Notes under the pieces: model-generated | Database searches by the model: none | The model's input: the letters and a program-made list of their open reading frames with translations, nothing else | Told to the model about the DNA's origin: nothing | Shown here: positions 22,580-45,556 of the stretch, one piece after another | Layout: each line of letters starts with the position of its first letter | How positions within the stretch are numbered: position 1 is the stretch's first letter | Made by a program: the position numbers and the translations under genes | Assembly (NCBI GenBank): GCA_963737655.1 | Contig: CAVTTN010000002.1 | Span: 544,001-608,000 of the forward strand | Direction: 5' to 3' | From: an uncultured Planctomycetota bacterium | GTDB taxonomy: Bacteria > Planctomycetota > Planctomycetia > Isosphaerales > Isosphaeraceae | DNA: 64,000 nucleotides

Positions 22580-22594
22580 AGTCGATGTCCATCA

Positions 22595-24442: not shown

Positions 24443-24539
24443 TTTCTTTACCTGTCGATAAAACTGCACAATACAATAGTAGGTTTATTTTGAGAATTGC
24501 CGTCGGAATCCCTGGTTTTTCCACGAGACGGTCGAGATT

Positions 24540-25480
24540 TTCCGGGAAGGGGTCGAAAAATGCCGACATTAACTCTTCTAACCCTGTAAAGGGTGAAACT
24601 CGGCATTAACTGTTCGCACCCCAAGCTAGACCGACGGTAAAAGCGAACGACCGTGTAGACGGCGGGTCACTGCGGATACGCAAAGCCAGGCGGGAGGAGG
24701 ACTTTCCTCGCTCCGCTCGGAAAGTATGGGGGTGGCGGGGCCACCCCCATGTCATTGACCTCGAACCCTTCGGGTGTTCGGCAGGAATGGTGTACGATGA
24801 CATGGATCGTGTAACCGAGCACATTCGCCCTCGCTACGAAACCATGCCGCACTCCTACATGTCTATCTCGGGCTTGCTCGTGTGCAACGTGGTCCTTCGG
24901 CCTCCGGCCTTCGGACGCACGCTGGGGACGCCGGGGGCGTCCCCAGCAGAGACCCTCGGAACACATGGGTATTCGCCTGGCGGCGTGGAATACTTGCGGT
25001 GTTGACCCCTACCCAGGTCACGCCGCATTCACTCAAGGGCTGCCGTGTCACGAAGCAAGCGTGGGAAATCGACGGCGGTCACTCGCCGCCTACCTCGGTC
25101 ACGAGCGAGTTCCGGGCGTTCACTAACCTGCACAGGACCGTCATGGGTGGTCTCGCTGGCCGTCTCCTGGTTCGCCGGTCTAAACCTCACTTCACCCGGA
25201 CCACCCCCCGAGTCCCGCCCAGCCCCCCTCCACACTCTCACGACCTCACCGTGCCGCCGATCAATCTATCGGCCTCGATGGGTTGCCCGCAGCCGATCCG
25301 AAGTTTCGAGGTCGGTCGGCGGGTTCGCACGACATTCACGAACTCGTCGCCGTCTTTCCAGGGAATGCGGTCTGGGCCTGACCATCCGCATCACGGCTAC
25401 CGCCGACCACCATGATTGGCGAGCCTGACGATCAAGTCCAGGTCGGTCTGGACTGGTTCCCACGGGTTGCGACAATTACC
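24540..25480. other. hairpin-dense non-coding region (candidate origin or structured RNA)
   Basis: no credible ORF; perfect stems at 24701-24725, 24726-24750, 24765-24775, 24921-24947, 25435-25454. Confidence 0.55.
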
Positions 25481-25569
25481 CTTAATTTAATCGTTCAATT
25501 TCGACGCAACCCATTTCGGGACCTATGAGTTCTCAGGTCGGCGATGGTGCCAGACTGCGAGAAAGACCA

Positions 25570-26001
25570 ATGAAATCCATTATCCAATCCAAATGTCGGC
25601 ACACTACCAAGAAGTTGTTCGAGTCCCTCGATAGGGTCGAGCAGGTGGCCCAGGCGATCAGGTGGCAGATTTCAAACTTGCAAGACGATCTATCGAACTC
25701 CAACGTTGAAGTCGGCAGGCTCACGGGCGAGTCTTGGGAGATCGCCAAACTCCTCGGAGAGTTAATCGCACTCCGAGACATGGAGGGCCACGTCGATGAC
25801 GTCTGTGTATGTGATTCATGCGGAACTTACGTCCTTACACCTTGCGAAGAATGTTCTTGCTATTGTTGCGACGATTGCCTGAAGGAGCACGCAGACAGGT
25901 TGCTCTGTGACGAGTGTCATGCGATCCTCACCGAGGAGGGCGAAGACACCGACGCTCACGCATCACCGGACAATAATCAGTCGGCCATGCAAGCTGCTTG
26001 A
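25570..26001 (+). CDS. hypothetical protein with Cys-rich zinc-finger C-terminus
   Basis: CDSCG, CEEC, CCDDC..H, LCDEC. Confidence 0.65.
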   Translation: MKSIIQSKCRHTTKKLFESLDRVEQVAQAIRWQISNLQDDLSNSNVEVGRLTGESWEIAKLLGELIALRDMEGHVDDVCVCDSCGTYVLTPCEECSCYCCDDCLKEHADRLLCDECHAILTEEGEDTDAHASPDNNQSAMQAA

Positions 26002-26355
26002 GCGTGGACGAGAGTCTTCCTCGATCCTCTCTCGCACGACAACGCTCAATCTGTGGGCGCTCGAAATGGTCCCGGTCGATTTCTTGGATAGCAAGAATTC
26101 GACCGGGACTAATCGCCTTTTTGGTCTGGCCGAATCATTTGCCTTGCTCAGTCCTTCACGTCGGGCTGCAACAGGCCGAGCCCGCCGCCCTCGGCAAAGC
26201 CGGGCAACGGCCACAACCCTTCTCGCCCGCCACGGTCGGACGCCCTTTCCCCGCACACCTGCGTTCTCCTGCTGTAATCCGGGTTTCATCTCGCCGACAA
26301 CGGCAAGGCTGGCACGGCCCTGGAGGTTGATGACCAACCGCATCAGGAGCCGTCC

Positions 26356-26562
26356 ATGACCAGGATTGTCCCCCGTCTTGTCTGCGAGAGGTTCGGGCGT
26401 TATGTCGTCTTGGAGTGTGACGAACTCCGGAGGAGGTACTGGACGGGCCATTGTTGGAGCCCTCAACTCCGGGAAGCTCGTTTGTTCGCCCGCATCGAGG
26501 ACGTCAACGAGGTCATTAACACTCGATTCGAACCGCCTTCGCTCTTCGACCGAGGTGTATGA
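26356..26562 (+). CDS. small hypothetical protein
   Basis: AGGAG SD; RYWTGHCWS..LREARLF. Confidence 0.6.
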   Translation: MTRIVPRLVCERFGRYVVLECDELRRRYWTGHCWSPQLREARLFARIEDVNEVINTRFEPPSLFDRGV

Positions 26563-26726
26563 TGGCCGACAGAATTGCCTCACTACTTGCCTGGTTCTTG
26601 ATCGGCATCGTGCTCATAGGCATCGTGGGCCTCCTGCTGCCCTTGGGGTTGATTCTGATTGGCGTAGGTATATCAGCCTTCGCCTGCTACCTCTTGGCCT
26701 GGCTGCTGGGTCGATTTCTGTCGTGA
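26559..26726 (+). CDS. 55-aa two-helix membrane protein (below ORF-track cutoff)
   Basis: MMADRIASLLAWFLIGIVLIGIVGLLLPLGLILIGVGISAFACYLLAWLLGRFLS*; ATGA overlap, GAGGTG SD. Confidence 0.55.
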   Translation: MMADRIASLLAWFLIGIVLIGIVGLLLPLGLILIGVGISAFACYLLAWLLGRFLS

Positions 26727-26835
26727 GCCGTACCGGTGACGACTCGACGTCGATCAGAACCGCCACAAGAACTCCGACACCTAGCCGACGAGTCAGGCGG
26801 AACAGAATTGTACGACGGATGTCTGAGCCGGGCGA

Positions 26836-27156
26836 TCAACAACCCCGGTTGAGAATTCTGGCGTCCTTCAGGAGGTTGGGGAATATCTTGATAAGACGCT
26901 CGGCATCATCTTCTCCCATCTGGTACGCCCGTTCCCTGAAGTTTGTCAACAGGGTCTTCTTGCCCGATAGGAAAATCCAGTTGCCCCCAGGTCTGGGGAT
27001 GCTGATGACCGACAGCCGACCAATGGCCCAGGTGCCATTCAGCCGCTTCAACTCGTCCCTGAGGGCACGCTCTTCGATAACGCAAGGCGTCGGCAGCACG
27101 AGGCTCTCGGGTTCTTCCTCTTCGCCGGGGATCTGGTTTTCGTCATTCCTCTTCAT
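26836..27156 (-). CDS. hypothetical protein
   Basis: ATGA-coupled to the RuvB-like gene. Confidence 0.6.
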   Translation of the reverse strand: MKRNDENQIPGEEEEPESLVLPTPCVIEERALRDELKRLNGTWAIGRLSVISIPRPGGNWIFLSGKKTLLTNFRERAYQMGEDDAERLIKIFPNLLKDARILNRGC

Positions 27157-28277
27157 CGCCCGGCCCTCGGCTGGGCTGGCCGTTCACCGGTTCCAAGGCC
27201 CCGTTTCTCCAGTTGGGCGAGACCCTCGGGCGTGATCCCGATGCCCCTACTCGTCGTGCTGATCAGCCCAATCCGACGGATGATCGGCAGGATGTATTCG
27301 TCAAGCTCTTCGACCTCGCAGTTGGCGACGTCCCGCAGTGCGTACTTTGAGATCGGTCCACGGGTCGCCAGAGCGGTCAGGATGCTCAGGTGGACCTCGG
27401 GCATGCCAAACTCGTCGATCCCATGCTCACGGCGGATCATCTCGACGGCTTCGAGCCACTCGCACTCCGAACGCTCACGCTCCGAAGTCACCTCGGTGGC
27501 GAAGTCGATGGCCTCACGGGCAACACGACCACAGTACAAGGCGATCTCCTCGCAAACCTCCAGGGGGACCGCAGGGCGGTTCCTGTGGATGATCAGGGCC
27601 ATCTCGAACTGGTTGTACGGCTTCAGGGTCGCCTTGACGAAGCGGCTGTCCAAAGCGGCTCCTAAACGTCCACGCTCGGTCGTTGCCAAAATCCAGCAGA
27701 CGTTCTGTGTGTCGAGGATGACGCCTTCGCCCGTGATCAGCTTATGGTCCGCTTTCTCCGTCGCCGTCAGCAGCCCGCCCTGGACGTCTTTGGGCATCTG
27801 GTGGGCTTCGTCGATCAGGACGACGATCGGCGGGGCGATGTAGTGATAGACGTCGTTGTAGGGCCTGAGAGACAGGTCCACGGGGGTTCCGTCGCCGTGC
27901 GTGTAGCCCGGCTGGGCCAGGATCCGGCAGAATTTCTGGAAGAGGTCGTGGTTGGTCCCGATTTCTTTCGGGTTCACCTCGATGAACGGCAGACCAGCGC
28001 CTTTCGCCAATCGCCGGGCGAGCGTCGTCTTGCCCGTCGAGGCCGGGCCGAGGAGGACCAGGTTCGTGTCGCTCATGTCGTGGTTCTCACGGCAGAGGGC
28101 CGTGTAGAGCATGCGGCAGAGCCTCTTGACGACGCTCTGGTTGCCCACGAAATCGAAGAACGGGTTCTCACGGTTACTGGGATCACAGTAAGCACGCAAC
28201 TCCTCGTCCGTCTTCGTCTCGAAGTCGGGGAAGATGAGTTGCTGCTGGGGTTGGGTGATCCAGATGTGGAATGCCAT
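27153..28277 (-). CDS. RuvB-like AAA+ ATPase (divergent paralog)
   Basis: DFVGN, GPASTGKTTLA, LIDEAH, ATT..G.L..ALDSRF, LKPY, GIDEFG, C-terminal wHTH with TSRG..ITPEG. Confidence 0.85.
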   Translation of the reverse strand: MAFHIWITQPQQQLIFPDFETKTDEELRAYCDPSNRENPFFDFVGNQSVVKRLCRMLYTALCRENHDMSDTNLVLLGPASTGKTTLARRLAKGAGLPFIEVNPKEIGTNHDLFQKFCRILAQPGYTHGDGTPVDLSLRPYNDVYHYIAPPIVVLIDEAHQMPKDVQGGLLTATEKADHKLITGEGVILDTQNVCWILATTERGRLGAALDSRFVKATLKPYNQFEMALIIHRNRPAVPLEVCEEIALYCGRVAREAIDFATEVTSERERSECEWLEAVEMIRREHGIDEFGMPEVHLSILTALATRGPISKYALRDVANCEVEELDEYILPIIRRIGLISTTSRGIGITPEGLAQLEKRGLGTGERPAQPRAGR

Positions 28278-28689
28278 GTTTCGAGATCCTCGGATTTCGT
28301 GTGCGAACCCCAGGGTCTTCGGAGCCAAGCGGGCCGGGCCTCTCGTCGCCCTCGGTCGTGGGGCCACCCGTCAGGTCGTGGCTAATAACGGTCAAGGGCC
28401 GGTGGAGGTCTCGAACAGTTTGTAGGAACCCGATGGCTCTGCTCGCTAATAACGGCGTTTATGCGGTTCGGAATTGGACACGGGCGTTTGGATCGGCTGG
28501 AGCACCTCTTCGCTCGCTATTCTGAGGACCGGGACGGGCCTATCCACGCCCGTATCCCCTCCGCTGTAGGAGCTTGGGGTGGGGGTCCAGGCCCGCCCGC
28601 TTGATGTCGGATACCCGCCTTCCGTTGACCGGCATGACTTCGAGGACCCTGCGGCTCGTGGAGCGAGGCCACGAACCGAGGGGGCAGCG

Positions 28690-29415
28690 ATGATTCACGA
28701 GACCGATTTGCCGGACGAGATGATGGCCCAGGCTGCCCAGGACTTTTTCGCCAGCGAATGGGCCAGTGCAAGGGAGGAGGCGGGCTTCCGATTCCGCCCT
28801 GGCACCCGGATTAACGCCGAGTGCTCGTCCCAGGACGGCGAGAAGCTGATCGAACTGGTGCGGCCCTACCTCGCTCGACTCTCCGTCGCCTGGGGCATGG
28901 GCGTGGGCGAGGTGTTCCGGTTGATGGAGATACCGGAGCGACGGTGGTCGGACGCCCTCTACTATGTCCTCATGGGCTGCCGGGGCCACGGGATCGGCCT
29001 GGCCGATCGCTTCGGAGAGAACATCCAGATCGCCGAGGACAAGCTCTGCAAGGGGATCGACCCTTCGCCGTTCGACGCCGAATTCAACGAGTTCTCCGAC
29101 CTGGCTTTCGAAGTCGTCGAGGCCGAGGCCCTCAAGCCCGATGATGGCCCCGACTCCGACGCCCCGCTCCGGTCCGGCGACCGGGTTCGTGTCGAGGCAC
29201 GGATGCCGACCGGCGACAGCCTCACGGGCAGCGGCGGGGTCGTCCGCTGGCTCCCCGCTGGCGGCGACCTCAGCTTCGGCGGGGGCGTGATCGTCACGAT
29301 GAATGACGAGGAGACGGTCGAGCCGTGGTCCTATCGGGGGAGGACGGTCCTCGTCGATGAGGCCGAGGCTGGCTTGTGGCCTGATGCAGGAACGAGCGAG
29401 TCGTTACCACGATGA
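28690..29415 (+). CDS. hypothetical protein
   Basis: GAGGGGG SD; long ORF with host-like codon use. Confidence 0.65.
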   Translation: MIHETDLPDEMMAQAAQDFFASEWASAREEAGFRFRPGTRINAECSSQDGEKLIELVRPYLARLSVAWGMGVGEVFRLMEIPERRWSDALYYVLMGCRGHGIGLADRFGENIQIAEDKLCKGIDPSPFDAEFNEFSDLAFEVVEAEALKPDDGPDSDAPLRSGDRVRVEARMPTGDSLTGSGGVVRWLPAGGDLSFGGGVIVTMNDEETVEPWSYRGRTVLVDEAEAGLWPDAGTSESLPR

Positions 29416-29498
29416 TCGTGGTGACTTGCCAGTCGTCAGGTTCCCCGAGCCCTTCAAATTCCTGCTGATCCTGAAGTCAATCACGAACGGAGCACACG

Positions 29499-29930
29499 AT
29501 GAGTGGCAACTCGGGGCAACACAGCGAGGGGACATCCGATCTGAAGGTCAGTGGCGGCAATCTCCGATGCCCGGCCATCGGACTTGACCTGGATGGCACG
29601 ATCGACGAGGCCCCGGCCTTCTTCGCCGCCCTGACCCAATCCTGGCCGGGCAGGATCGTGATAATCACGTACCGTGACGACCGGAGCAAGGCCCTCGACG
29701 ACCTTGCCCGCTACGGGGTCAGGTTCGACGAACTCGTGCTCGTGTCTTCGTTCGCCGAGAAGGCCGTCGTACTCCGGGAGAAGAAGATCGGCGTCTACAT
29801 CGACGACCAGGACGAGATCCTCATGCACGTCCCGGAGGGCGTGGTCGTGCTCAAGATCAGGAACGGTGGCAATTACCACTACAACACCTCGAAATGGCTC
29901 TACAGCGCCCGGACCGGGGAGCAGTTGTGA
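29499..29930 (+). CDS. small HAD-superfamily hydrolase (phage-type)
   Basis: GLDLDGT, IITYR, K, YIDD motifs. Confidence 0.8.
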   Translation: MSGNSGQHSEGTSDLKVSGGNLRCPAIGLDLDGTIDEAPAFFAALTQSWPGRIVIITYRDDRSKALDDLARYGVRFDELVLVSSFAEKAVVLREKKIGVYIDDQDEILMHVPEGVVVLKIRNGGNYHYNTSKWLYSARTGEQL

Positions 29931-30029
29931 AAGGGCTGCTTTTGCACGCAAGGACGGCACTCCCTCGCTTCGGCCCCGCAAGACCGCCCGCTCGCAAGGA
30001 AAGACGGCGGCTCCGGCATAGATACATCC

Positions 30030-31811
30030 ATGAGGTTCAAGGAATGGCTCGAAGAGACTGACTGGCTCGACAACCCCCTCCTCGGAGGGATGCTCGCCCT
30101 CCACCGCTGGTTGGAGGAATTCTTCGAGGCGAGCGGCGGCGGGCCGATCACGCTGGAACCGGGCCAGCAGGATTTCAGGCTCGACCATCCCGGTCGCCAC
30201 CTCGACAAGATCCTTCCCGCCGCTTCCGATGGTGGACCCCGCATCATCCGGGGGCCGGACAGCAACTTCCTGATCCCCCTGGACAGCCTTGACCGGATTC
30301 AAGGGATGAACCCCCAGGACGTCCCGAAGTTGCTCAGCCATTTCGTGAGAGATCAGCCCTACATCGCCGCCTTCGCCCAAGCCAGCCCCGAGAACATGGC
30401 GTCGGCGATCATCTTCGTGCTCCTGACGATCCGGGCCGACTTCATGCAGGTCATGCAGACCTTCCCGCTCCTGATGTCCGTCCTCATGACGCACTTTCAG
30501 GACAAGCCGATGGCCCCCGGCGAATTGGAGGCGAAGCTGGGCGAGATGATGGAGAGACATGCGTCGATGTCTCACCCCAACCTTCGGGTCACGAGCAAGA
30601 CTGGCAAGGTCTACCGGAGGGGCTACGGTGTCGGCGGGCAAATCTTCGGCTTCAAGTACGAGGGAGTCACCGACGTCTGGAACCGGAGGGAGGCGATCTA
30701 CGGATCGATCATGAACCTCGTCGCCAAGAAGGACACGATCGCCGTCTTTGAGTACCTCCTGTCCACCATGAAAGGGCTCGCCCAGGCGAAGGCGGGTTTC
30801 TGCGTGCAACTCATCTTCGGCGAAATGGGCTGCATCGACATGCATAACGTCAATTCGTACAGCCAGTTCTACCTCGACCGTGGGCAGCCCCGCTCGAAGG
30901 CCACCGTCTTCCAGCCCGATCACCTCAACGGCCTCTACATGCGGTCCCCGGCCTCGAAGCGAGACCTCAACATGTACAACGCCCTCGACCCGAGGAAGTT
31001 CAGCAGCAAGCCTATGCTCCCCGGACCCAGGCCGTCGGGCGTTGTCGATGCCCGGCAGATGCGGACGTGGGGCAACCGGACCGAACGATTCAAAGGAAGC
31101 GTGAAGGCTTATGTTGACGTGCTGAGAGCGCTGGAGAAGGACGGGTTCACCACGATCAAGTTGTGGGACATCTGGGTCTCGTACGTCGCCAATGCCTACA
31201 CGAAGGTCTCGCCGAGGAAGGATGCCAACGGCGACGAGGACGGAGGCTCCCGGTACGCCCGAGACGGCCTGCTGGCGGGAAACCCGCTCGACACGGCGAG
31301 CGACCCGACCGACGCCCGGATCATGAAAACGAAGGGGCCGATCCCGGACCGGAACACGTTGTTGACGCAGGCGAAGAACATCCGGTGGGTCAAGGACCCA
31401 CAGACGGGCATCCTCAGGCCGATCAAGAAGGACAACGACCAGTCGAACCCGCTTGACACGTTTTCTCTCGATGGGATGGACATGGAACCCAGTGCCGGGG
31501 CGGCAAGCCTTGCTCACGGTGCGACGTGGTGGTGGAGGACGCCTGGGTACTGGTGGGATCTCATACGCCAGGCCCAGGGTCATCGGGCGAAGGACGGCAT
31601 CCGCTACTCCTCCGACGACTGGGCCGGGCCGATCAGCGATGTCGCCAAGCCCCTGGCCTACCTGGCGACCGAGCCGGAGATGCTCGACGCCCTGTTCCCC
31701 GACAGGGACGAGCGGCGGCGGTTCAAGAGGGAACTGGACGATGTGCTGAAGCGGCACGACTTCTGGGCGAAGAAAGACTACAAGCCGAGCAAGGCGTCGA
31801 GGTCGAACTGA
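30030..31811 (+). CDS. phage-like protein with HhH-GPD DNA-glycosylase-like domain
   Basis: MKGLAQAKAGFCVQLIFGEMGCIDMHN resembles the HhH-Lys...Asp-x-His core; N-terminus MRFKEWLEE. Confidence 0.6.
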   Translation: MRFKEWLEETDWLDNPLLGGMLALHRWLEEFFEASGGGPITLEPGQQDFRLDHPGRHLDKILPAASDGGPRIIRGPDSNFLIPLDSLDRIQGMNPQDVPKLLSHFVRDQPYIAAFAQASPENMASAIIFVLLTIRADFMQVMQTFPLLMSVLMTHFQDKPMAPGELEAKLGEMMERHASMSHPNLRVTSKTGKVYRRGYGVGGQIFGFKYEGVTDVWNRREAIYGSIMNLVAKKDTIAVFEYLLSTMKGLAQAKAGFCVQLIFGEMGCIDMHNVNSYSQFYLDRGQPRSKATVFQPDHLNGLYMRSPASKRDLNMYNALDPRKFSSKPMLPGPRPSGVVDARQMRTWGNRTERFKGSVKAYVDVLRALEKDGFTTIKLWDIWVSYVANAYTKVSPRKDANGDEDGGSRYARDGLLAGNPLDTASDPTDARIMKTKGPIPDRNTLLTQAKNIRWVKDPQTGILRPIKKDNDQSNPLDTFSLDGMDMEPSAGAASLAHGATWWWRTPGYWWDLIRQAQGHRAKDGIRYSSDDWAGPISDVAKPLAYLATEPEMLDALFPDRDERRRFKRELDDVLKRHDFWAKKDYKPSKASRSN

Positions 31812-31852
31812 ATTTTTAGACTCTGAAGCAGGTGTTGTCTGGAGGGCTCACG

Positions 31853-32080
31853 ATGACGGACGAATTCGATGAAGACGGTGAAGAGTTGCTCTACGAGGGT
31901 GCCCAGTGCTGCCGGTGTGATCTGGATCTCGACCCTCGGAGCGGCTACTGCCCGAACGACCGATGCCCCTTCAACGGTCGGCATCAGGGCGAGATCGTGC
32001 GATTGTCGCCGCCCGATCAACAAGAGGAGCTTCATATCGAGCGGGTCCGGGCTGGGCTCCTCGAAGAAGGCGAACGCTGA
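31853..32080 (+). CDS. small Cys-rich hypothetical protein
   Basis: GGAGG SD; CCRC...CPNDRCP..H. Confidence 0.55.
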   Translation: MTDEFDEDGEELLYEGAQCCRCDLDLDPRSGYCPNDRCPFNGRHQGEIVRLSPPDQQEELHIERVRAGLLEEGER

Positions 32081-32191
32081 GGGCAGAACATTTCGGCGAA
32101 CTTGCATTTGACGATTCTTGGTTTTTCAGCCTACTTGTCCTGTGTGCCTCCTCTGAGGCCAAACTCTCCGACAAAAACAATCGAGACATTC

Positions 32192-32581
32192 ATGATCAGG
32201 ACCAGCCGAAATGGCGGATCGACGCAGATCACGCCCACCAGCGATTGTGGTTTCGGGTCCGATGCAGGCATCGGACTTCAATCAGCCCACCCAAGTGCCC
32301 CAGCATCTTGTTCCGACGGGCACGAGTGGGTCGTGTTCAGCACCGCCCTACTGGACGCTTGCCTCATGCTTCAGTGCATCGAGTGCGGGACCCACGGGAC
32401 CGTTGACGACCCAACCAAGGAAGAGTGGTCGGAGGCGTTCTATGCCCCGTCCAATCCCTACCGGTGGGAGGACGAGTCGAGGGTCCGCATCAGGGGCCGA
32501 GGCCCCCTCTACGTCGGGAAGTTCGGCGACCAAGCGGACGATCGATCCCCGTCCCCTCGTGCTGAAGGGATGGTGGCCTGA
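32192..32581 (+). CDS. hypothetical zinc-ribbon protein (start uncertain)
   Basis: C..GHEW...LQCIECG; TGATG coupling to next gene. Confidence 0.55.
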   Translation: MIRTSRNGGSTQITPTSDCGFGSDAGIGLQSAHPSAPASCSDGHEWVVFSTALLDACLMLQCIECGTHGTVDDPTKEEWSEAFYAPSNPYRWEDESRVRIRGRGPLYVGKFGDQADDRSPSPRAEGMVA

Positions 32582-33129
32582 TGGCGACGTGCGAGAAGAT
32601 CGACCCGATTGTCATCAACCCCGACGGCTCGATCCAGGATGAGGTCTTCTCCCTGGACGAGAACGACTTCCTACAGGGCTGGCAGCCCGTCACCGAGCCG
32701 ACCGGGAAAGACGAGGAAGAATCCGAACGGGTGGGGAAACGAATCCGAGCTTGGCCGCAGCAGTGCTGGTTCAACGCCCGACGGGCCGTCATGCGCCTCT
32801 CGGATTACGCCGACGCCAGCTACGTCGAGGGATATTGCATGATGGTCGGTGGCTGGGTGATGGAGCACGGGTGGGTCTACCGCCCGGACGGCACGGTCAT
32901 CGACCCTACACTCCCCAGAAAGGTCGTCGCCTACTTCCCCGGCCTGGAGTTCCGGGGTCTTGCAGGCATAAGCGAGTTCCTCGCCACTCCGAGGGGCCGG
33001 AAATGCAAGCGGTCCCCGTTCTTCTACGCCTTCGGCTGGGGCGGCGGGGACAGCCCCAGCTTCTCGGCATCCATGCTTCGGGCGTTTGCTTACCAGAAGG
33101 ATTCCCTGTCGGTAGTGCAGGCAGCATGA
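32581..33129 (+). CDS. hypothetical protein, transglutaminase/papain-like Cys-His-Asp motif
   Basis: QCWFNA, YVEGY, EHGW, VIDPT. Confidence 0.65.
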   Translation: MATCEKIDPIVINPDGSIQDEVFSLDENDFLQGWQPVTEPTGKDEEESERVGKRIRAWPQQCWFNARRAVMRLSDYADASYVEGYCMMVGGWVMEHGWVYRPDGTVIDPTLPRKVVAYFPGLEFRGLAGISEFLATPRGRKCKRSPFFYAFGWGGGDSPSFSASMLRAFAYQKDSLSVVQAA

Positions 33130-33316
33130 GGGGGCTTCCAGGGGGCGTTTCCCGCCCGGGCTGAGAACTTCATAGTTCGACCCGTCATGGCGTAGGGTGT
33201 CACCGATCCGTCATTAAACGTCCCCGGCCCCGAACGTGGGCGTAGGAGGGAATGCTTTCGCAGTATCCTCCACGCCGCATCCGCCAACGTGAGCTTCCGG
33301 CTGACCGAGAGGGGCA

Positions 33317-33556
33317 TCAGGGTTGCGGCAGGACGGGCCGAACCCCCTGATTCGCCACCTGTCGGGACTCGGGCGAGATGGCCCTCTTCAGATCGCCGGG
33401 GGTCAACGATGTCCCCCGCTTCTTCGCCCTCTCTATGGCCCTCTTCGTATCCTCAAGTCCTGGGGATGCGAGGCTGATCGCTGTCGCCCGTGTCAGCCGG
33501 AGGGGGCTGGGAGTGAGGGCCTGCCGAGACTGAACGTATTCCGAGAAACTCATCAT
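33317..33556 (-). CDS. small basic hypothetical protein
   Basis: ATGA-coupled to the HNH gene; N-terminus MMSFSEYV. Confidence 0.55.
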   Translation of the reverse strand: MMSFSEYVQSRQALTPSPLRLTRATAISLASPGLEDTKRAIERAKKRGTSLTPGDLKRAISPESRQVANQGVRPVLPQP

Positions 33557-34134
33557 GCGACGGCCCTCCGAGGTCCAGGCCGATCGGCGACGAGGGTTTC
33601 GGGCTGCTCGGAGGGTAGGAGATGCCTCCAGGTCAGGCCCCGGACGATGGCCCTGACGTTGGACTCGCTGACTTTGAAGTGGTCGGCGATGCTCCTCATC
33701 GACCGACCGTCGGCTCTCATCCTGCGGATTTCGATGACTTTGGCTTCAGTCAATTTCGAACGGAGCCTCTCCCCCCTGGCTTTGGTGCCGTGCTTCACCG
33801 CATCGTCGCTGTTCGTCTGATGGGTGCCCCAGTACAAGTTCGTCAAGGCATTGTTCAAGCGGTCTCCATCCTTGTGGCAGGCGATGCACCCGGACCGTCC
33901 CGGTCCTTCGAATGCCCCCAAGACAAGTCGATGTATACGGCGGATCGCCTTCTTACCATCCGTCGCAGGGAGATTCACGGTGGAGTAGCCGTCACGGAGG
34001 ATCCGCATGAGGGGGAGCCAGGTGTCGGTGGGCAGCCGGTAGCGGCCCCGGCGGACCCAGCAAGACTGGACCTCACCGTCCCTACTTACACGGTATCCGG
34101 GGAACTCGGGAATTGGGCGGTAGAAATTGTTCAT
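33553..34134 (-). CDS. NUMOD4-HNH homing-endonuclease-like protein with C-terminal HTH
   Basis: PIPEFPGYRVSRDGEV, IHRLVLGAF, CHKDGDRLNNALTNL..GT..N, SKLTE..V.EIR. Confidence 0.92.
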   Translation of the reverse strand: MNNFYRPIPEFPGYRVSRDGEVQSCWVRRGRYRLPTDTWLPLMRILRDGYSTVNLPATDGKKAIRRIHRLVLGAFEGPGRSGCIACHKDGDRLNNALTNLYWGTHQTNSDDAVKHGTKARGERLRSKLTEAKVIEIRRMRADGRSMRSIADHFKVSESNVRAIVRGLTWRHLLPSEQPETLVADRPGPRRAVA

Positions 34135-34219
34135 GCTCGTATATATGCGGCTATCATCGAACTTTTCGCACTCTTCAGGGATACGGAAATTTTTCTACGG
34201 GGCCATCTCTATATACTGC

Positions 34220-34912
34220 ATGATGACGTTCATGAAATACATCGAATGGGTCTCACTACACGAGGCCGCAAGACGGTCCTTTTCCCGCACCTTGGCGAAG
34301 TTCCACACGACCTCAACCAACAAGCCAGTGGCGGTCCTTACCGCCTGGCGTGGCGAGCTTGCCGACGCCTCTGGCAAGCCCCACACCGAGGCCGTGAGGC
34401 GAAAGCTGAACGACGATGCGAACCGCAAGCTGGCGGTCGAGGTCCGACGTCGGGGGCTGTCGCTCGTCCCGGTCATCGGGGCCGGTCAGGAAGAAGATGA
34501 AGATGGCGTCCTGACTGCCAACCGGGAGGAGAGCTACCTCATCCAGCCAATCGGCGACATGCCCGAGCGAGAGTTCCTGGACCACATCAGGAGCATCCTT
34601 TACAACCCCACTGGCGAGCCCGGTAGAGGTCTCTACCCCCACACCCAATGGGGCGGCGTGGTCAAGCTCCCGAGCCAACCGAAGGCGTTTATTGTCCATC
34701 AACAGGACGACCCAACCGGCCCCGAAGACTACCGTATCGGCGACCACCTGGGGACGACCGCCAGGCCCAGAAAGAGCGAACCCTATTACACCCAGTTGAA
34801 GTACGGACCCAGGGCCTCGGATTCGATGATGGATTCGCTGGACAAGCCGGACGACCTGGGTACGATCAAGGGACAACCTGGGCGCAGGTTCACATTGGGA
34901 GGCGTGTCATGA
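34220..34912 (+). CDS. phage-like hypothetical protein (DUF3293-like core)
   Basis: AVLTAWRG...N..ANRKL...GL..VPV.G...EESYLI; N-terminus MMTFMKYIEW..LHE. Confidence 0.65.
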   Translation: MMTFMKYIEWVSLHEAARRSFSRTLAKFHTTSTNKPVAVLTAWRGELADASGKPHTEAVRRKLNDDANRKLAVEVRRRGLSLVPVIGAGQEEDEDGVLTANREESYLIQPIGDMPEREFLDHIRSILYNPTGEPGRGLYPHTQWGGVVKLPSQPKAFIVHQQDDPTGPEDYRIGDHLGTTARPRKSEPYYTQLKYGPRASDSMMDSLDKPDDLGTIKGQPGRRFTLGGVS

Positions 34913-35199
34913 GTGATGATCTTGATAAGCGGTCAGACAGCGACCGGCTCGGCGAACTGAAGGTCGAGCTATCTCGACACTTCGGCAAATTCACCCGCTG
35001 GAGGGCTCTGTGCCAGGAGCGGGACGTCACCACCAACGAGGAGCAGATCCGCCTTGCCGAGGAGGTACTGAAGGCACCGTCCACCGGAACAAATGCCGAA
35101 TGGCTCACCCACCACTTGCGGCTCCAAGGCGGCAAGAGCTTCGACGTCGATGAGATGCTCGCCCGCAGCGATGCGGCTCCGGGGAAGGACGAGGCGTGA
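34909..35199 (+). CDS. hypothetical protein
   Basis: GGAGG SD; overlaps both neighbours by 4 nt. Confidence 0.6.
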   Translation: MSDDLDKRSDSDRLGELKVELSRHFGKFTRWRALCQERDVTTNEEQIRLAEEVLKAPSTGTNAEWLTHHLRLQGGKSFDVDEMLARSDAAPGKDEA

Positions 35200-36023
35200 A
35201 CGGCGAGATTGTGGCAGGGCTGGGGTTCAAGGACTGGCTGACGAACGAGACGCTCGCCTTGGCCGGGAACTACAAGGGCGGTGTCTTCCAGCGGCTCGTG
35301 GCGGCAAGTTACAAACTCTCCCCGTTCAGCGACCCCGCCGCCCGCCCCGCCTTCGAAGAACTCGCCCGCAAGATGGCCCGCCAGAACGACTTTCTCAGGC
35401 ACTCGTACGACTTCATCCCTTCGTCCGGCGACCACTACTCCAGTTTCAACCAGCTTCGACGCTCGATCGATGCTCAGCGGCAAGCCGGGAAGAAGCGGGC
35501 CGACATGTACGTCTACGCCGAGCCGCCTGGTCCCGAGGGGGACGCCGCCCAACAGGGCCACCCGGTCTTCACGAACGACCAGAACGTCATGGTCCGGGGC
35601 GTCCACGACGCCATCGCCCATCTGGGCGGCAACCACCCGTTCTCGGCCCGAGGCGAGTACGGGGCGTACAACCGGCACGTCAAGACGCTCTGCAACGTCC
35701 AGGACGCCAGGGCCGGACGGTGCCCGGCGGCTGCGGCCCTGTTCACGGAGATCGTCGGGCAGACGTCGTTCTACTACGTCTACGGTCAGTTCGCCCCCCA
35801 GAAGGCCGTCTTCCTCCCCGACTTCGACTGCTACAACGTCGGCCTGCTCGCCCCCTCGTCGAGGTTGAACGGCTTATTCATGGTCAAGGACAAGGACCTC
35901 GTTTGCAGGCAGGACTTCGACGCCGAGGTCTTCGCAAAGGACTTCCCGGCGCTCTCGCAGGAGCTTGCCCGGCAGGTCGGCAGCCCGAAGGTCAGGCTGG
36001 CCAACATCCCGATCCAACGGTGA
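35196..36023 (+). CDS. phage-like hypothetical protein with RxVHDxxxH...GE...H...TE..GQ...F.PQK motif
   Basis: RGVHDAIAH, RGEYGAYNRH, ALFTEIVGQ, FAPQKA; near-N-terminal FKDWLTNE. Confidence 0.65.
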   Translation: MNGEIVAGLGFKDWLTNETLALAGNYKGGVFQRLVAASYKLSPFSDPAARPAFEELARKMARQNDFLRHSYDFIPSSGDHYSSFNQLRRSIDAQRQAGKKRADMYVYAEPPGPEGDAAQQGHPVFTNDQNVMVRGVHDAIAHLGGNHPFSARGEYGAYNRHVKTLCNVQDARAGRCPAAAALFTEIVGQTSFYYVYGQFAPQKAVFLPDFDCYNVGLLAPSSRLNGLFMVKDKDLVCRQDFDAEVFAKDFPALSQELARQVGSPKVRLANIPIQR

Positions 36024-36082
36024 CAATGGGACATCGGACATGGCAAGGGCACGTCCTCGATAGGATGGTTGCAGGGCCACTG

Positions 36083-36580
36083 ATGACGTTTCCCCTGACT
36101 GAGAGCCCCATCGAGGAGGCCACCGCCTTGGATGCCCCGCTCTACTTCGAGGACCTGGCGGTCGGACAGACGTTCGGGACCGGCACCGTCACGGTCGAGC
36201 CCGAGATGATCAAGGCGTTCGCCGCCGAGTTCGACCCGCAGCCCTTCCACCTGGACCAGGACGCCGCCCGTGGGAGCCTCTTCGGCGGGCTCGTGTCGAG
36301 CGGCTGGCACACCGCCGCCCTGACGATGAAGCTGCTGGTCGGGGGCGAATTGAAGATCGTGGGCGGACTCATCGGCCTGGGGGTCGAGGATCTCCGGTGG
36401 CCCCGTCCCGTCCATCCCGGTGACGTCCTGCGTGTCGAGAGCGAGATACTCGGCCTTCGACCGTCGAAATCTCAGCCGAGCCGGGGTATCGTCAGGGTGC
36501 GAAATACAACCTTCAACCAGGACGGCCATCCGGTGATGATCCAAGTCGTCAACATGATCGTGCCGAGGCGTACGCCTTGA
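36083..36580 (+). CDS. MaoC-family dehydratase
   Basis: YFEDL, FDPQPFHLD, SGWHT, PVHPGD. Confidence 0.92.
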   Translation: MTFPLTESPIEEATALDAPLYFEDLAVGQTFGTGTVTVEPEMIKAFAAEFDPQPFHLDQDAARGSLFGGLVSSGWHTAALTMKLLVGGELKIVGGLIGLGVEDLRWPRPVHPGDVLRVESEILGLRPSKSQPSRGIVRVRNTTFNQDGHPVMIQVVNMIVPRRTP

Positions 36581-36704
36581 TCCTTTCGAGTCCCCATCAC
36601 ACGATATCGGAAGGTCCACGGAGACGACCTCGGGGTTAATCCTCGCCGTCGCCCACGGTTGACATGGCAAGGCTGTTTTCGCTGTTCCCCCGAGGGCGAC
36701 GGTC

Positions 36705-37130
36705 ATGTTCCGCCAGTCGATCGAGGTCGCCGCCGAGCCCGGCGTGCTGTTCGACCTGACCCAGGACTACTCGCACCGGCTCGACTGGGACCCGTTCCTG
36801 AAGGAGGCGAGGCTGGTCGGCGGGGCCGAGAGTCCGGGCGTCGGTGTCCGGGCCTGGTGCGTGGCCCGGAACGGATTGGGGATGGAGACCGAGTACGTCT
36901 CGTTCAACCCGCCGGGGGCCTGCGCCGTCGAGATGACCAGGGGGCCTTGGTTCTTCCGGGCCTTCTCCGGCTCCTGGCGGTTCGACCGGATCGGGCCGGG
37001 ACGGACCAGGGTCACGTTCACCTACAGCCTCGCCGGACGCCCTTCTCTCATTTCCGGCCCGCTTCGACTGGTATTCGCCCGTGAGACCCGCCGTCGCCTC
37101 GGAGCGCTGAAGCGGGCTGTCGAGGGATGA
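36705..37130 (+). CDS. SRPBCC / polyketide cyclase family protein
   Basis: FDLTQDY..RLDWDPF, GPWFF..FSGSWRF. Confidence 0.85.
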   Translation: MFRQSIEVAAEPGVLFDLTQDYSHRLDWDPFLKEARLVGGAESPGVGVRAWCVARNGLGMETEYVSFNPPGACAVEMTRGPWFFRAFSGSWRFDRIGPGRTRVTFTYSLAGRPSLISGPLRLVFARETRRRLGALKRAVEG

Positions 37131-37415
37131 AGGCGTCGGGTCGTTCGCTCCCGGTGGCACGAACCCTCCGGGCAAGGTGATGAATGGATCGGCCTGCGAG
37201 CCCGTGATACCCTCATTGCAGGAGCCATTGATCAAAAGAGCGGTGATGGATCATGGGGCGGCACAAGATGGGCACCTGGGACCACCTGAAGAAGAGGCTC
37301 AAAGTCTACTATGCTTCCGATGGTGTGGTCAAGAAACCGAAGCCAAGGGTAGTGTCTCAGTTTGAATCCCATTTTTTTGCGGGCGCTCTCGGCCCGCGTA
37401 TTTCTGAACGCCCGG

Positions 37416-38246
37416 TCAGTCGATCAAACTGACAAGTTCTTCGAGCGACCAGAGATGATCCGCCACCTTGGCCGCCATCGCCGGGGTGACGCGCAGCGTC
37501 TGGTGCCGACGCACGAAGTTGTAGTGCATGTAGTGCAACGCAACGGCATGCTCAAGGTTCTCGATCTTCTTGGAGAAGGCGTTCGTCAACCGAGTGAACC
37601 GACGCATCCGCATTCGCATCGTTAGATTCTGGCGCTCAACATAGCTTGTTGATATTTGAGCTTCGTCCGGCGATCCGGTGATCGGCCGCTTCTCGATCCC
37701 GGTGCATTCGCCGGGACTATACCGGACTTCCGGCCCACGCCCGCCCTCGTTGCCGTAGAGCTTGATGAGCATGGCATAGTCGATCTCGCCCCCGAAGCCC
37801 GCCTCCACGGCTTCGAGGTAGGGCTTGTGGCCGTCCGTGGTCAACTGGACCCGATGGGCGAGCCGGGACGCCAGGTCCGCGATGAAGGCCGTCGCGTGGG
37901 CCGTGTCGCGGGCCCCGACGAGGAACGACGGCACCAGCTTCGTGTCGGCGCAGATCGCCGTCCAGGTCCACACGTCGCCGACCCCCTTCTGGCCCTTCCG
38001 CTCGGCCGGGACGTTCTTCTCCTTCATCCCGACGAAGGACCAGATCTCATCGCACTGGACCCGCTTGCACGGCAACTTGCGGAGCGTCTCGTGCTGGTAC
38101 TTCGCGCAGGCCGTCCCGGCGTCGATCAGGAGCTTCGTGACCGTGTTGATCGACACTCCGGTCATCCGCTGCGTCGATCGGAGGGAGTTGCCTTCGACCA
38201 GGGCCGAGAGGATCGCGACACGCTTGGCCGTCTTGAGTTGGTTCAT
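37416..38246 (-). CDS. IS1-family DDE transposase
   Basis: HTH SLRSTQRMTGVSINTV; QCDEIW, LTTDG, TSYVERQN, RRFTRLTNAFSKK. Confidence 0.92.
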   Translation of the reverse strand: MNQLKTAKRVAILSALVEGNSLRSTQRMTGVSINTVTKLLIDAGTACAKYQHETLRKLPCKRVQCDEIWSFVGMKEKNVPAERKGQKGVGDVWTWTAICADTKLVPSFLVGARDTAHATAFIADLASRLAHRVQLTTDGHKPYLEAVEAGFGGEIDYAMLIKLYGNEGGRGPEVRYSPGECTGIEKRPITGSPDEAQISTSYVERQNLTMRMRMRRFTRLTNAFSKKIENLEHAVALHYMHYNFVRRHQTLRVTPAMAAKVADHLWSLEELVSLID

Positions 38247-38344
38247 ACTGACAGTATGCATTTTCGGTCAAGCATAGTCAAGCGGAAAAAGTTCAGTTTG
38301 GCCCGGATTTGCTCCGGGTTACAGAAATGAGTGCTGACAGGGGT

Positions 38345-39523
38345 TTAGGTCGATTTCTGGTCGGGATCGGGGGGGATTTCTCCGGGTTCCAAATCGGAAG
38401 CGTTCGCTTCCGGTTCCAAAGCCGACTCCTCATCGAACAGCATCCGCTGTCCGGCCTGCTTCTGGGGGAGATAGACAGTAAAATGAACCGGCAAGCGGCC
38501 GTATTTCTCGGCCATCCTGTCCTGGAGTTGGCGGATGGATTTACAACAAGAGCACATGCCAACAACCATCCAAATGTGCTCGACCAGTTTCCTCAGACCA
38601 TATTGATCGTTCAACCATTGGTGATAGTTCTGGCCTTTCTGTGGCTTCGGCGCGTTCTTGCGCAGCCATTCCGCAACATCTCGGTCCAAATACCCATAAA
38701 TCAACTCCATCACGAGCTTGCCCCAATATTTCGGCCGGGAGTGGATGCCTCCCTTCCAGTTGGTGAGCCTGGCGAACTCGACCCACAGAGCTTCAGGAAA
38801 CGTCCGCTCCCACTTCCGCATCTCGTCCGCGAGATACATCTTGAGCTTGAATTGCAGGGCGTCGCTGGCCCTCTCGTACTGGTAGCCCGTCGCCTCGTCG
38901 ATGAGCGCTTCCAGCCCTACCTTAGCGCAGGCCGCAAGGAAGGCGCCCGCCTTGTTCGCCATCTCAAGTTGGTTCGGAGTGGTGAGGGCGCTCTCCGCCA
39001 AGGCCCGGACATAGGCCCGGCAAATGTCGATGAACGTAGTGGCTTCCAGGCCCTTTACCGACTTGTTGACGATGTGCGAGAGCGTGAATTCGACCATTCG
39101 ATCCGGCAGATCGGCCGGGATGTATTTGGAGATCGCCGCCGCCCGGAGATATTGCTCAAGCTGCCCTCCGCCTTGCGGGCCGGCGAGGTATAGAGTCGCG
39201 GCGGTGCGGCTGATGACTCGCCGGCCATCGCTCAAGACGAAGCATTGAATCGCGGTGTCGCCGATTTCGAGCACGCCGGGCCACTTGGCCCACGGCAAGG
39301 ACGGTACGATCTCGGCATCGACGCTCTCCGGGACCGGGAGGAAGTCGGTCGGCGAGAGGTTGATCGCGTTGGCTTGAGCCAGCTCAAGCAGCTTCTCGTG
39401 CCACTTGGCGGGGATCGCGCCAGCCTTGGTCCAGTACTGGACGGTGCTAGGGCCCTTGCCGATCAGTTTCGCGAGGGGCGTGAGGCCCCCGAATCTCTGG
39501 ACGATGATCTCGGCAGAGTTCAT
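38345..39523 (-). CDS. P63C domain protein with N-terminal Cro-like HTH (IS passenger)
   Basis: GGLTPLAKLIGKGPSTVQYW; CFVLSDGRRVIS, GLEALIDEATGYQYER, WERTFP, YHQWL. Confidence 0.88.
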   Translation of the reverse strand: MNSAEIIVQRFGGLTPLAKLIGKGPSTVQYWTKAGAIPAKWHEKLLELAQANAINLSPTDFLPVPESVDAEIVPSLPWAKWPGVLEIGDTAIQCFVLSDGRRVISRTAATLYLAGPQGGGQLEQYLRAAAISKYIPADLPDRMVEFTLSHIVNKSVKGLEATTFIDICRAYVRALAESALTTPNQLEMANKAGAFLAACAKVGLEALIDEATGYQYERASDALQFKLKMYLADEMRKWERTFPEALWVEFARLTNWKGGIHSRPKYWGKLVMELIYGYLDRDVAEWLRKNAPKPQKGQNYHQWLNDQYGLRKLVEHIWMVVGMCSCCKSIRQLQDRMAEKYGRLPVHFTVYLPQKQAGQRMLFDEESALEPEANASDLEPGEIPPDPDQKST

Positions 39524-39627
39524 GGCAACACCAGCCTTCCTGGAAAGAGGATGCTGGAATGCTACCAGGGAATCTGGCGAAGTCTACCAAAAAAACTGTA
39601 AACGAAAAACTGTATTTTTGTAGTCCG

Positions 39628-39930
39628 CTATTCCTTTGCCCGCTCCCAGCGTTTTGCCGCCGCCTTCCTGGCGATCTCAGCCCGCCGCTCGGGCGTCATG
39701 GACGCCGCCCGAGCCTTACCGCCTTTGAGGCCGCCCCGCTTTCCCAGGGCCCGCGCCGCCTCGCGGATCGGGTCAGGGACCGGCTCGGCTTCGGCCGGGG
39801 CTTCGGCCGGGGCTTCGGCCGGGGCTTCGGCGGGCGGTGGCGCCTCGTCGGCCGTCGCCTGATCGACGATGGCCTTGGCCAGTTGGTTGATATCGCGGGG
39901 CCGCTTGGGCTTGCTTGAGTGGTTAGGCAT
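39628..39930 (-). CDS. small basic protein (IS-associated)
   Basis: KRPRDINQLAKAIVD, LGKRGGLKGGKARA..MTPERRAEIARKAAAKRW. Confidence 0.8.
   Translation of the reverse strand: MPNHSSKPKRPRDINQLAKAIVDQATADEAPPPAEAPAEAPAEAPAEAEPVPDPIREAARALGKRGGLKGGKARAASMTPERRAEIARKAAAKRWERAKE
39787..39831. repeat. 12-bp tandem repeat (3.75 copies) encoding PAEA
   Basis: GGCTTCGGCCGG x3 plus GGCTTCGGC. Confidence 0.85.
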
Positions 39931-40652
39931 ACCCCAAGTATCGCACCCCGGCCCGATCCGGTGAAGCTGAACAGAAATTTCCGCCCACTTCAAACTGAGA
40001 CACTACCAAGCCAAGAGAACTGGACCGCTTCGAGCGTGAGAGCGGCTTCATGCTCCCCGACGACTACCGGGAATACGCACGCACTTTCGGCCCCGGTACG
40101 CTCGGCAAGGGATGGCAGATTTCCACCCCCGGCTTTGCCGACGCCGACGACGAGGACGTCGATCTCGCCCGGTTCAACCATCGGTTCTCCGACCGGAGAT
40201 ACGTCCGCTTCTGCGGCAAGGAGGACTTCCACGGGTGGTTCGCATGGGACCCCGAGGACGTCGCCGACGCCGTGCGGCATCACTACGGCATCTATCTCCT
40301 GGGCGGTCCTCAGGGCGAAGACCCCAATGCCCCGCCGATCAAGGTCGCCCCGTCCTTCTATGAATTCATCATGGCCTATGCCTTGGGGGGCGGCTTCGAG
40401 CGTCAACAAGGAGATGGCGGTACGGGCGAGGCCGATGGCCCCGTCTTGCCCGAGATCGTGGGATTCTCCCAGGTCATCTCATGAATGGCCGGGTCAAAAC
40501 GATGAGGCGGCTGGGGCGGGCACGCCCCATCTCATGAAATCACCGTGGTGGAGGGATCGATGCCGGACGGGGCGAGGTTGGACCGTCGGGAGCGTGCGAC
40601 GGTCATCGGGTGTGACCCGCTGAAACGATGATCTCGTCTCAGGATCGCTGCG

Positions 40653-41243
40653 ATGGCCGTCTGGGACGACCTTGAGAAGCGAGTCATGGTGGATCAAGTT
40701 GATGCGATGGGCGGTTGCGTGGTCCTGAAGCCCTAGCCCGAGGACCTGGACCGCTTCGAGCGTGAGAGCGGGTTCAAGCTCCCCGGCAGCTATCGGGAGT
40801 TCGCAATGACTTTCGGGCCGGGTTATCTCGAACCCGGCTTCTGTTTCAATTCCCCCGGCTTCCCGAGCGATCGATCCGTCGATCTCACCGCAAGGAACCT
40901 CCTCTCGCAGGCGAGGGAGCCCGGAGGACCTATCGGTGGTTTCTCCCGCTTCTGCCACAGCGATGACTTCCACGGATCTTGGGCCTGGAACTCCGAGGAC
41001 GTCACCGACCCCGCCCGGCATGAATACGGGATCTATCAGACCCACCCGGAAGTTGTGCCCTTCGGATCGGGGAGGGTAGGCCGGAGGAGACCTCCGGTCA
41101 AGGTCGCCTCGACCTTCCGTGAATTCGTCCTGGATTATGCGCTGGCCGACGACCTCGGGGGTCGAGGCGGGGCGTCCGGGGCGAACGATCTCGATGAGTC
41201 CGGCAAGCCCGGATTGATCCCCTTCCGGCAGACTCGATTTTGA
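40653..41243 (+). pseudogene. second SMI1/KNR4 (SUKH) paralog with in-frame TAG
   Basis: MAVWDDLEKRV...LKP*PEDLDRFERESGFKLPGSYREFAMTFGPG; TAG at 40734-40736. Confidence 0.75.
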
Positions 41244-45541: not shown

Positions 45542-45556
45542 TTTACGTCGGGCAGC

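Follow-up and report, generated by a model that had tools for sequence, protein, structure and literature searches.

Why should four neighbouring genes of a planctomycete chromosome, encoding unrelated proteins, open with the same short peptide, and why should that peptide resemble the label by which T4-like phages direct proteins into their heads? The question arises from a 64,000-nt stretch of an uncultured member of the Isosphaeraceae (Planctomycetota; GCA_963737655.1, contig CAVTTN010000002.1, positions 544,001 to 608,000 of the forward strand), hereafter the window, to which unprefixed coordinates refer. A first-pass annotation, made from the letters of the sequence, had singled out four open reading frames (ORFs), all of which were found in place with the starts it had given. 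They encode a protein of 593 amino acids (aa) beginning MRFKEWLEE (30030-31811, plus strand), a 79-aa protein beginning MMSFSEYVQ (33317-33556, minus strand), a 230-aa protein in which MMTFMKYIEW..LHE is followed by AARRSF (34220-34912, plus strand), and a 275-aa protein with a GTG start, in which ..GLGFKDWLTNE precedes TLALAG (35196-36023, plus strand). The picture we favour, and hold to be fairly probable, is one of four genes of unrelated families that carry a phage-type head-address tag and lie as mobile cassettes in an acquired island.

The layout common to the four N-termini is aromatic-x-x-aromatic-aliphatic, usually with a Glu within a few residues. The aromatics are F3/W6 in the 593-aa protein, F4/Y7 in the 79-aa and 230-aa proteins and, offset from the start, F11/W14 in the 275-aa protein, and the Glu after the tag is found as L7-E8-E9 in the 593-aa protein, as L-H-E at positions 12-14 in the 230-aa protein and as an invariant E18 after T-N in the 275-aa protein. 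Across a six-frame translation of the whole 7.63-Mb genome, the pattern F-[KSM]-[EDK]-[WY]-[LVI] has 27 matches in total, ten of them with a start codon no more than 12 codons upstream and at least 60 open codons downstream; four of these ten fall within 5.2 kb of the window (30036-35226). Elsewhere in the genome, a deliberately broadened pattern returned some ten loci close to the 5' end of frames with high GC content at third codon positions, against four in the cluster, and disclosed no further tag cluster. When the 100 nt upstream and 60 nt downstream of the four starts were aligned, nothing was common to them except the motif codons, which themselves differ, so the likeness is one of protein and not of DNA. 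The pattern was drawn up after the four ORFs had been seen, which leaves some room for chance, or for a repeat at the level of DNA, for instance a promoter or translation-start module common to the four genes. The probability of either is nevertheless practically nil, and both are ruled out as the source of the shared starts by the clustering of so rare a pattern at ORF starts, by the unlike codons and unalignable upstream DNA, and by the conservation of the motif in hundreds of homologues spanning a GC content of 24% to 66%.

Peptides of this kind, termed capsid-targeting sequences (CTS), are textbook knowledge for the internal proteins of phages. The T4 record shows IPI beginning MKTFKEF and IPII and IPIII beginning MKTYQEFIAE, leaders that agree with the resemblance to the T4 CTS proposed in the first-pass annotation. 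According to a review of Black's work, the first ten residues of T4 IPIII suffice for head targeting, with targeting governed mainly by residues 4 and 7 and processing by residues 8 and 10 (PMC9026906); the internal head proteins of T4 all dock to the core through their CTS, and the prohead proteases of T4-type and giant phages cut after Glu (PMC5694885). The CTS of the T4 internal proteins is also treated in PMC3012670. By sequence, the tag appears to match the T4 CTS at the residues reported to matter. A literature search, with subscription journals largely outside its coverage, returned no account of CTS-like tags on bacterial chromosomal genes, and the new element here is the selective retention of such tags on genes of bacterial mobile and defence islands.

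That retention is seen within the protein families themselves. In bacterial-type clades of 51, 8 and 28 sequences, conservation is at least 80% at the tag residues but only 20-40% at the positions that separate and flank them. In the structure models of the 593-aa and 275-aa proteins, the tags have a predicted local distance difference test score (pLDDT) of 48-61 and stand ahead of well-modelled domains; they are accordingly modelled as flexible and not obviously part of the folds.

The same tag is carried by huge phages. In a 181-kb phage record (G064), 28 of 228 greedily called ORFs (12%) begin M-x(0-4)-F-x-x-[WFY]-[LIVM], compared with 7 of 890 internal Met positions, and a [LIVMF]-x-E site lies within seven residues of the aliphatic position in 15 of the 28 tagged ORFs, compared with 24 of the 200 untagged ones over a window of the same size. 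Such starts are common on genes of large phages with T4-type head genes, as had been supposed, and the tag presumably acts as a head-address label in these genomes. Tagged phage genes include members of the 275-aa and 593-aa families, and altogether three of the four tagged families have homologues in viral contigs with the motif kept. An IMG/VR contig with a GC content of 0.62 (L001) encodes a 593-family member, 32% identical, directly downstream of the large terminase, together with a T4-type portal (PF07230, 3e-75) and a gp21-type prohead protease (PF03420); the same order of terminase and 593-family gene was judged by eye in a metagenome contig (L053). Portal and protease occur together in L001, G062 and G064; the T4-type portal was found in two of five records with the 275-aa family, and the prohead protease in three of five of a second record set.

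Members of the 275-aa family lie on 23 viral contigs, the longest of 225 kb, and where the closer homologues occur, neighbouring genes begin MNFREWLLNEG, MIRFKQWLENR, MKNFHEWLNES, MKTFREFVEMM and MNFKLWLYREE. By the CheckV estimate, the 122-225-kb phage fragments represent 24-52% of their genomes, whose full size would then be close to half a megabase. Searches of the phage database by tblastn with the 593-aa and 230-aa proteins gave no match, and viral relatives of these two were found only by profile-based scans of IMG/VR and metagenomes. The T4-type portal genes sit in frames of 840-849 aa (L001:2362-4893; G062:C1:27764-28888; G064:C1:125693-126811), in which the Portal_T4 match begins near residue 350; a sub-threshold intein-splicing match lies upstream of it in L001, and the N-terminal extension may be intein-like. 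IMG/VR labels the L001 and L006 records (G066, G067), which are T4-type or tag-bearing, as 'provirus', a status unusual for T4-like phages, and the label may be a classification artefact.

What, then, do the tagged genes encode? The 593-aa protein has 29 homologues, and in an alignment of 21 sequences F3 never varies, and M-x-F-K-E-W-L is still present in members of only 30-40% identity. The same alignment holds a conserved GLAQAKAGF..GCIDMHNVN and invariant K254, G256, G264, G267 and D270, with K254 lying 16 residues before D270. A full VIA-align scan of the structure model (pLDDT 81.5, predicted template modelling score 0.84) placed HhH-GPD DNA glycosylases at all ranks from 1 to 23 (Z 11.9 to 5.1), headed by 3n0u_A (Tm1821 Ogg; Z 11.9, root-mean-square deviation 2.8, 187 of 209 residues aligned) and continuing with OGG1 (Z 8.9), EndoIII (Z 8.3) and then AlkA, MutY, Mag and AGOG. 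The core (residues about 100-496) is predicted to adopt an HhH-GPD DNA-glycosylase-like fold, helical and two-domain with a helix-hairpin-helix, as in Ogg, EndoIII, AlkA and MutY. The position of K254, in a Gly-rich hairpin ahead of D270, is reminiscent of the hairpin-Lys and Gly-rich-loop-Asp signature of bifunctional glycosylase/lyases, a resemblance of sequence pattern and not a residue-level superposition. The protein differs from these enzymes in having roughly three times their size, additional regions at both ends and the tag, and it has no sequence-level match to them: the HhH-GPD profile was unmatched in a Pfam scan, and a family-profile sequence search of the PDB returned nothing. 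Foldseek of the model against PDB and BFVD gave no row at E <= 0.001, only a weak run of OGG rows.

Directly after this gene lies one for a Cys-rich companion of 82 aa (31832..32080, plus strand), whose product is 77% identical to that of the gene following the 593-aa homologue in another locus (L003). T4 itself presents a coincidence beside a tagged glycosylase-like protein, in that its DNA glycosylase gene denV directly adjoins ipII and ipIII (L060, T4 64.9-66.4 kb); T4 endonuclease V has a fold different from that of the HhH-GPD glycosylases.

The three smaller tagged genes surround an endonuclease gene. The 79-aa protein has nine homologues at 41-58% identity, in which M2 and F4 are invariant, and its gene start overlaps the stop of a gene for a free-standing HNH homing-type endonuclease (33553..34134, minus strand; Pfam HNH_3 2e-8, phrog_59 8e-36, PADLOC HEase). 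In another genome, an 80-codon ORF with MQTFFEYIAQSRK, resembling the N-terminus of the 79-aa protein, lies 4 kb from the cassette (L047:15436-15678), and a small tagged gene of this type may travel with the cassette there as well. The HNH gene is divergent from three genes encoding the 230-aa protein, an untagged 96-aa product (34909..35199, plus strand) and the 275-aa protein; these overlap by ATGA and GTGA and therefore form one operon. Both the untagged middle gene, kept in all four other loci with the operon, and the HNH gene, in the same position in three of those four, belong to a recurring arrangement.

For the 230-aa protein, 90 homologues have in common F-x-E-W..[LFV]-x-E right before the conserved AARRSF, with E16 invariant. 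By homology, the family register of the tag in the window protein is Y7-I-E-W10, overlapping the F4-M-K-Y7 first noticed. All 27 of 27 family members matched the DUF3293 profile (PF11697) at sub-threshold level (best E 7.9e-5), and the window protein scored 17.6 bits against a cut-off of 25, short of the gathering score, so that the family appears from sequence to be a distant DUF3293 relative at most. A SAM (S-adenosylmethionine) lyase was also considered for this protein and rejected, the Atlas score of 0.76 being below the useful range and none of 27 family members matching that Pfam family.

The 275-aa protein has 170 homologues. An alignment of 37 members shows no variation at F11 and E18 and very little at W14, and the start M-x(0-6)-[FL]-x-x-aromatic is present in 55 of 57 distant full-length members. 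It matches phrog_3170 (E 1.2e-11; residues 35-217 against profile positions 116-276 of 433), and tblastn returned distant relatives in 205 phage records, all of actinobacteriophages and 199 of them of Mycobacterium phages, such as Alice, LinStu and Nappy. The model reaches a pLDDT of 90 with a disordered N-terminus. Among 48,161 PDB representatives it has no structural neighbour (best Z 2.6, best Foldseek E 0.12), which is not proof of a new fold, and a family-profile sequence search of the PDB gave one chance-level row only. Invariant His, Asp, Arg and Glu residues suggest that the family is enzymatic.

The tagged genes occur sporadically and in separable units. The 593-aa gene is present in one of 61 related genomes, namely its own. 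The 275-aa family occurs in four genomes out of 121 in the order and is missing from three same-genus genomes. The window and L003, a planctomycete assembly, have only the 593-aa gene and its 82-aa follower in common; the same pair recurs in a second planctomycete assembly (L004), which also shares with the window a DUF4291 gene and, at another place, a short match, and in both L003 and L004 the 593-aa gene lies downstream of ArdC (ArdcN plus MPTase-PolyVal) and of a ParB-like gene. The [HNH]-230-96-275 block recurs in four loci of three other genomes, with the HNH gene in three of the four, and its neighbours there include a tyrosine integrase and ArdC (L050), a type I restriction subunit, helicase-nucleases, SLFN and DUF4365. 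The cassettes are, accordingly, the 593-aa gene with its 82-aa follower, the HNH gene beside 230-96-275, and the 79-aa gene. In L047, a cluster encoding a 354-aa protein, an IetA-like AAA+ ATPase, DUF2997 and a 122-aa protein directly adjoins 230-96-275 (L047:5244-8412); its counterpart in the window (41478-44669), 82-84% identical, is 6 kb away, about 4.5 kb with MaoC, SRPBCC, IS1-like transposase and P63C genes lying between it and the cassette.

Comparison of the window genes with other bacterial copies gave ratios of nonsynonymous to synonymous substitution (dN/dS) of 0.15 for the 593-aa gene (against the L003 copy), 0.16-0.22 for the 275-aa gene and 0.20-0.31 for the 230-aa gene. The tagged genes are thus intact and under purifying selection (0.15-0.31), and decay without selection was not seen. 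Since the phage homologues keep the motif, the clustering exceeds chance and selection is purifying, none of the three contrary outcomes named in the first-pass annotation was found, namely homologues lacking the motif or lying outside T4-like phages, a motif equally common among housekeeping N-termini, and a decaying prophage.

A rival explanation makes the genes passive, phage-derived passengers, pieces of huge-phage DNA that a mobile island took up with help from the homing endonuclease and retains for their enzyme activity, with the tag persisting for a reason other than the capsid, such as an N-terminal helix or another partner. The HNH homing endonuclease beside the cassette in four of five loci fits such a capture, as does a bacterial clade that is old and distinct from the viral one. 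Phage-type accessory genes also lie nearby: DUF5131, P63C, an RNA ligase/kinase cluster and a RuvB/clamp-loader-like AAA+ ATPase (27153..28367, minus strand; Pfam AAA, RuvB_N and RuvB_C, phrog_5846), of which a 37% identical homologue shares a contig with a 593-family member in L054. Against it, precisely the tag residues are kept amid variable neighbours in the bacterial-type clades, the low model confidence of the tags argues against a structural role, and the same tag stands on four unrelated folds. We regard this explanation as unlikely.

In what kind of DNA do the cassettes lie? The whole window (1..64000) is enclosed by a 74-kb island (G000:C2:542,887-617,271) with a GC content of 0.62-0.64, in which the observed-to-expected ratio (O/E) is 0.02 for CGCG, against 0.65 for the genome, and 0.11 for GCGC, against 0.39, even where GC content is near that of the host. 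The genome has 68,302 CGCG sites, with a median of 575 per 64 kb; the window has 19, the minimum of 943 windows, and 17 of these fall in 2.5 kb (37395-39894) with the IS1-like transposase and P63C genes, a segment that looks like a later insertion. The region of the four genes has a GC content of 0.621, against a genome mean of 0.687 (standard deviation 0.019 over 6-kb windows), and 0.5% of 1265 windows are as low; for window positions 19-48 kb, none of 262 genomic windows of 29 kb is as low. Given this low GC content and the near absence of CGCG, the island is horizontally acquired and its genes are not host-adapted. The description of the genes as host-like in GC content and in CGCG avoidance is therefore not upheld, avoidance being a trait of the foreign island in a host with an O/E of 0.65; nor do they look like domesticated host genes, lying as they do in a low-GC island and being absent from three same-genus genomes and most genomes of the family. 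Two more CGCG-poor stretches of the genome (G000:C2:1,525,489-1,542,111, with gaps of up to 16.6 kb, and about 4,061,726-4,110,093, with gaps of up to 10.7 kb) are candidates for further foreign islands; neither showed a tagged ORF.

The depletion reaches beyond this genome, with zero or one CGCG site in each of six related bacterial loci over 16-21 kb and, in the GC-rich phage contig L001, five CGCG sites against 124 expected and no GCGC. A shared avoidance of this kind in the island, the related loci and L001 fits DNA that frequently arrives in new cells unmodified, and would suit an island, or cassettes, spreading in the heads of T4-type phages that package by the headful, with the tagged proteins co-injected to protect the DNA. 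The ArdC anti-restriction genes and integrase that adjoin the cassettes elsewhere, and the DNA methylase and DUF5131 genes at the island edge, point the same way. Yet the tagged proteins would enter every head, not just the transducing ones, and the island looks composite, its GC content running from 0.58 to 0.68. Among the scanned ORFs of the window and flank, where many island ORFs are without a family assignment, there is no integrase, replication module, small terminase or capsid-remodelling gene, only DDE transposases. No excision junction or empty site was recovered either: the left flank is conserved in the three same-genus genomes up to about C2:536.5 kb, and right-flank matches in these genomes fell on other contigs, without a junction. 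Spread of the island or its cassettes as virion cargo is quite unlikely on this balance.

A second possible beneficiary is the host. The proposal of a 'Trojan horse' defence, in which an infecting phage mistakenly loads the tagged enzymes and yields poisoned progeny or a sabotaged next infection, is suggested by the company the genes keep. They lie 12-18 kb from a complete type 2 BREX (bacteriophage exclusion; Pgl) system, identified by PADLOC and family scans, which comprises BrxHI, BrxD, PglZ, PglY/BrxC, an SLFN/AlbA_2 gene, PglX and PglW and extends from 47627 to about 67100 (L031:2856-7100), and they are near a PD-T4-1/PDC-S36-like gene; elsewhere they stand beside type I restriction, helicase-nuclease and SLFN/DUF4365 genes. 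Their sporadic occurrence is like that of defence genes, the tag and the putative catalytic residues are conserved, and the genome has no head genes of its own for the tag to serve. Defence islands, however, gather mobile and anti-defence genes too, and PADLOC assigned no defence family at E <= 1e-5 to the 593-, 230- and 275-aa proteins, the three that were scanned. Moreover, phages carry the same families with the same tag, so the payloads are not evidently harmful to phages. As the explanation of the cluster, we consider it improbable.

No capsid, portal, terminase or tail family was matched by the scanned window ORFs, as had been noted, and in the whole genome (88% complete) the T4-type portal, prohead protease and Gp23 (PF07230, PF03420, PF07068) had no matches, the PF07230 and PF03420 searches having matched in the phage records as a positive control. 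Nothing in the genome can therefore read the tag. On the favoured picture of tagged cassettes in an acquired island, a related huge phage would infect, the tag would dock the island proteins onto the prohead core, and the gp21-type protease of the phage would cut behind the conserved Glu. The trimmed enzymes, including the HhH-GPD glycosylase-like one, would then travel in the heads and be ejected with the DNA. The island could benefit, should its pre-loaded proteins go along with island DNA in transduction; the host could, through sabotage; or there may be no beneficiary, the captured phage genes being kept for their enzyme activity.

Several observations weigh against such loading. An L-x-E directly behind the tag is found only in the 593-aa protein, the called ORF of the 275-aa protein reaches its tag only at residue 11, a conserved Glu is absent from the 79-aa family, and Leu replaces Phe in one subclade of the 230-aa family. 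Identity between bacterial and viral copies is no more than 30-53%, and the bacterial ones form their own clade, with 72-86% identity among themselves; they are therefore not recently captured. The integrase, ArdC and ParB-like neighbours seen elsewhere suggest an integrative or conjugative context, with no obvious use for a capsid tag, and a tag on one in eight phage genes might serve some other purpose. We know of no phage of this host. Taken together, actual encapsidation of the bacterial proteins appears doubtful, and it is rather unlikely that an infecting T4-type phage loads the island enzymes by way of its own tag so as to poison its progeny or to package an anti-restriction kit.

The island holds further genes. 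At 16523-19638, family scans identified genes for an AAA_33 kinase, a Thg1 C-terminal domain protein, an RNA ligase and an HD+AAA_33 protein, which look like an RNA repair or tRNA-healing module of the type carried by phages and defence islands. A part of near-host GC content (8919-13911) holds two adjacent R2K-clade ATP-grasp genes, DUF2293, a methyltransferase and a Macro-domain gene, and the island also has transposases. Among the sequencing data sets listed as containing this DNA, none is of RNA, and those of DNA contain it at small shares (0.05-0.09).

Should the loading of tagged proteins prove real, phage heads would be a shared vehicle for host and island proteins, with consequences for defence, counter-defence and transduction: poisoning of progeny would be a new principle of defence, and delivery of a kit a new way for mobile elements to exploit the virion. 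If the tag is irrelevant in bacteria, the locus still offers a clear case of phage accessory genes circulating as defence-island cassettes. On the viral side, the analysis points to a clade of roughly half-megabase T4-type phages linked to planctomycete hosts, and the likely list of virion cargo gains a large tagged family, HhH-GPD glycosylase-like by its model, and the well-modelled 275-aa family.

Among known systems, the closest is the CTS of T4 IPI, IPII and IPIII, likewise an N-terminal peptide of about ten residues on otherwise unrelated proteins, with aromatics three apart, then an aliphatic residue and often a Glu, as in MRFKEWLEE, MMSFSEYV and MMTFMKYI here. Unlike the T4 system, the tagged genes lie in a bacterial chromosome island without head genes, the L/I-x-E site is inconstant, the tag is offset in the 275-aa protein, and the payloads, where the T4 internal proteins are small and basic, are probably large enzymes. 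The huge T4-type phages such as G064 place the same tag on about one gene in eight, but do so in phage genomes, whereas the copies described here belong to a bacterial island and a separate clade. With the ArdC or 'polyvalent protein' anti-restriction modules the cassettes have adjacency in common, the 593-aa gene lying downstream of ArdC in L003 and L004 and ArdC preceding 230-96-275 in L050; the window differs in having no ArdC, and the tagged proteins are stand-alone, not domains of polyvalent proteins.

Phage satellites such as phage-inducible chromosomal islands (PICI), P4 and PICI-like elements (PLE) redirect capsid assembly and the packaging of their own DNA, and none is known to us to load its own proteins through the capsid-targeting tag of its helper. 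No satellite hallmark genes were found among the scanned ORFs of the window and flank, in contrast to PICI, P4 and PLE; as in those systems, a chromosomal element would here use the virion of an infecting phage. Capsid-targeting tags are known as a phage's private means of deciding which of its proteins go along with the DNA, and the same tag, selectively conserved on four unrelated genes of a bacterial island, suggests that other elements may possibly write the phage's address label.

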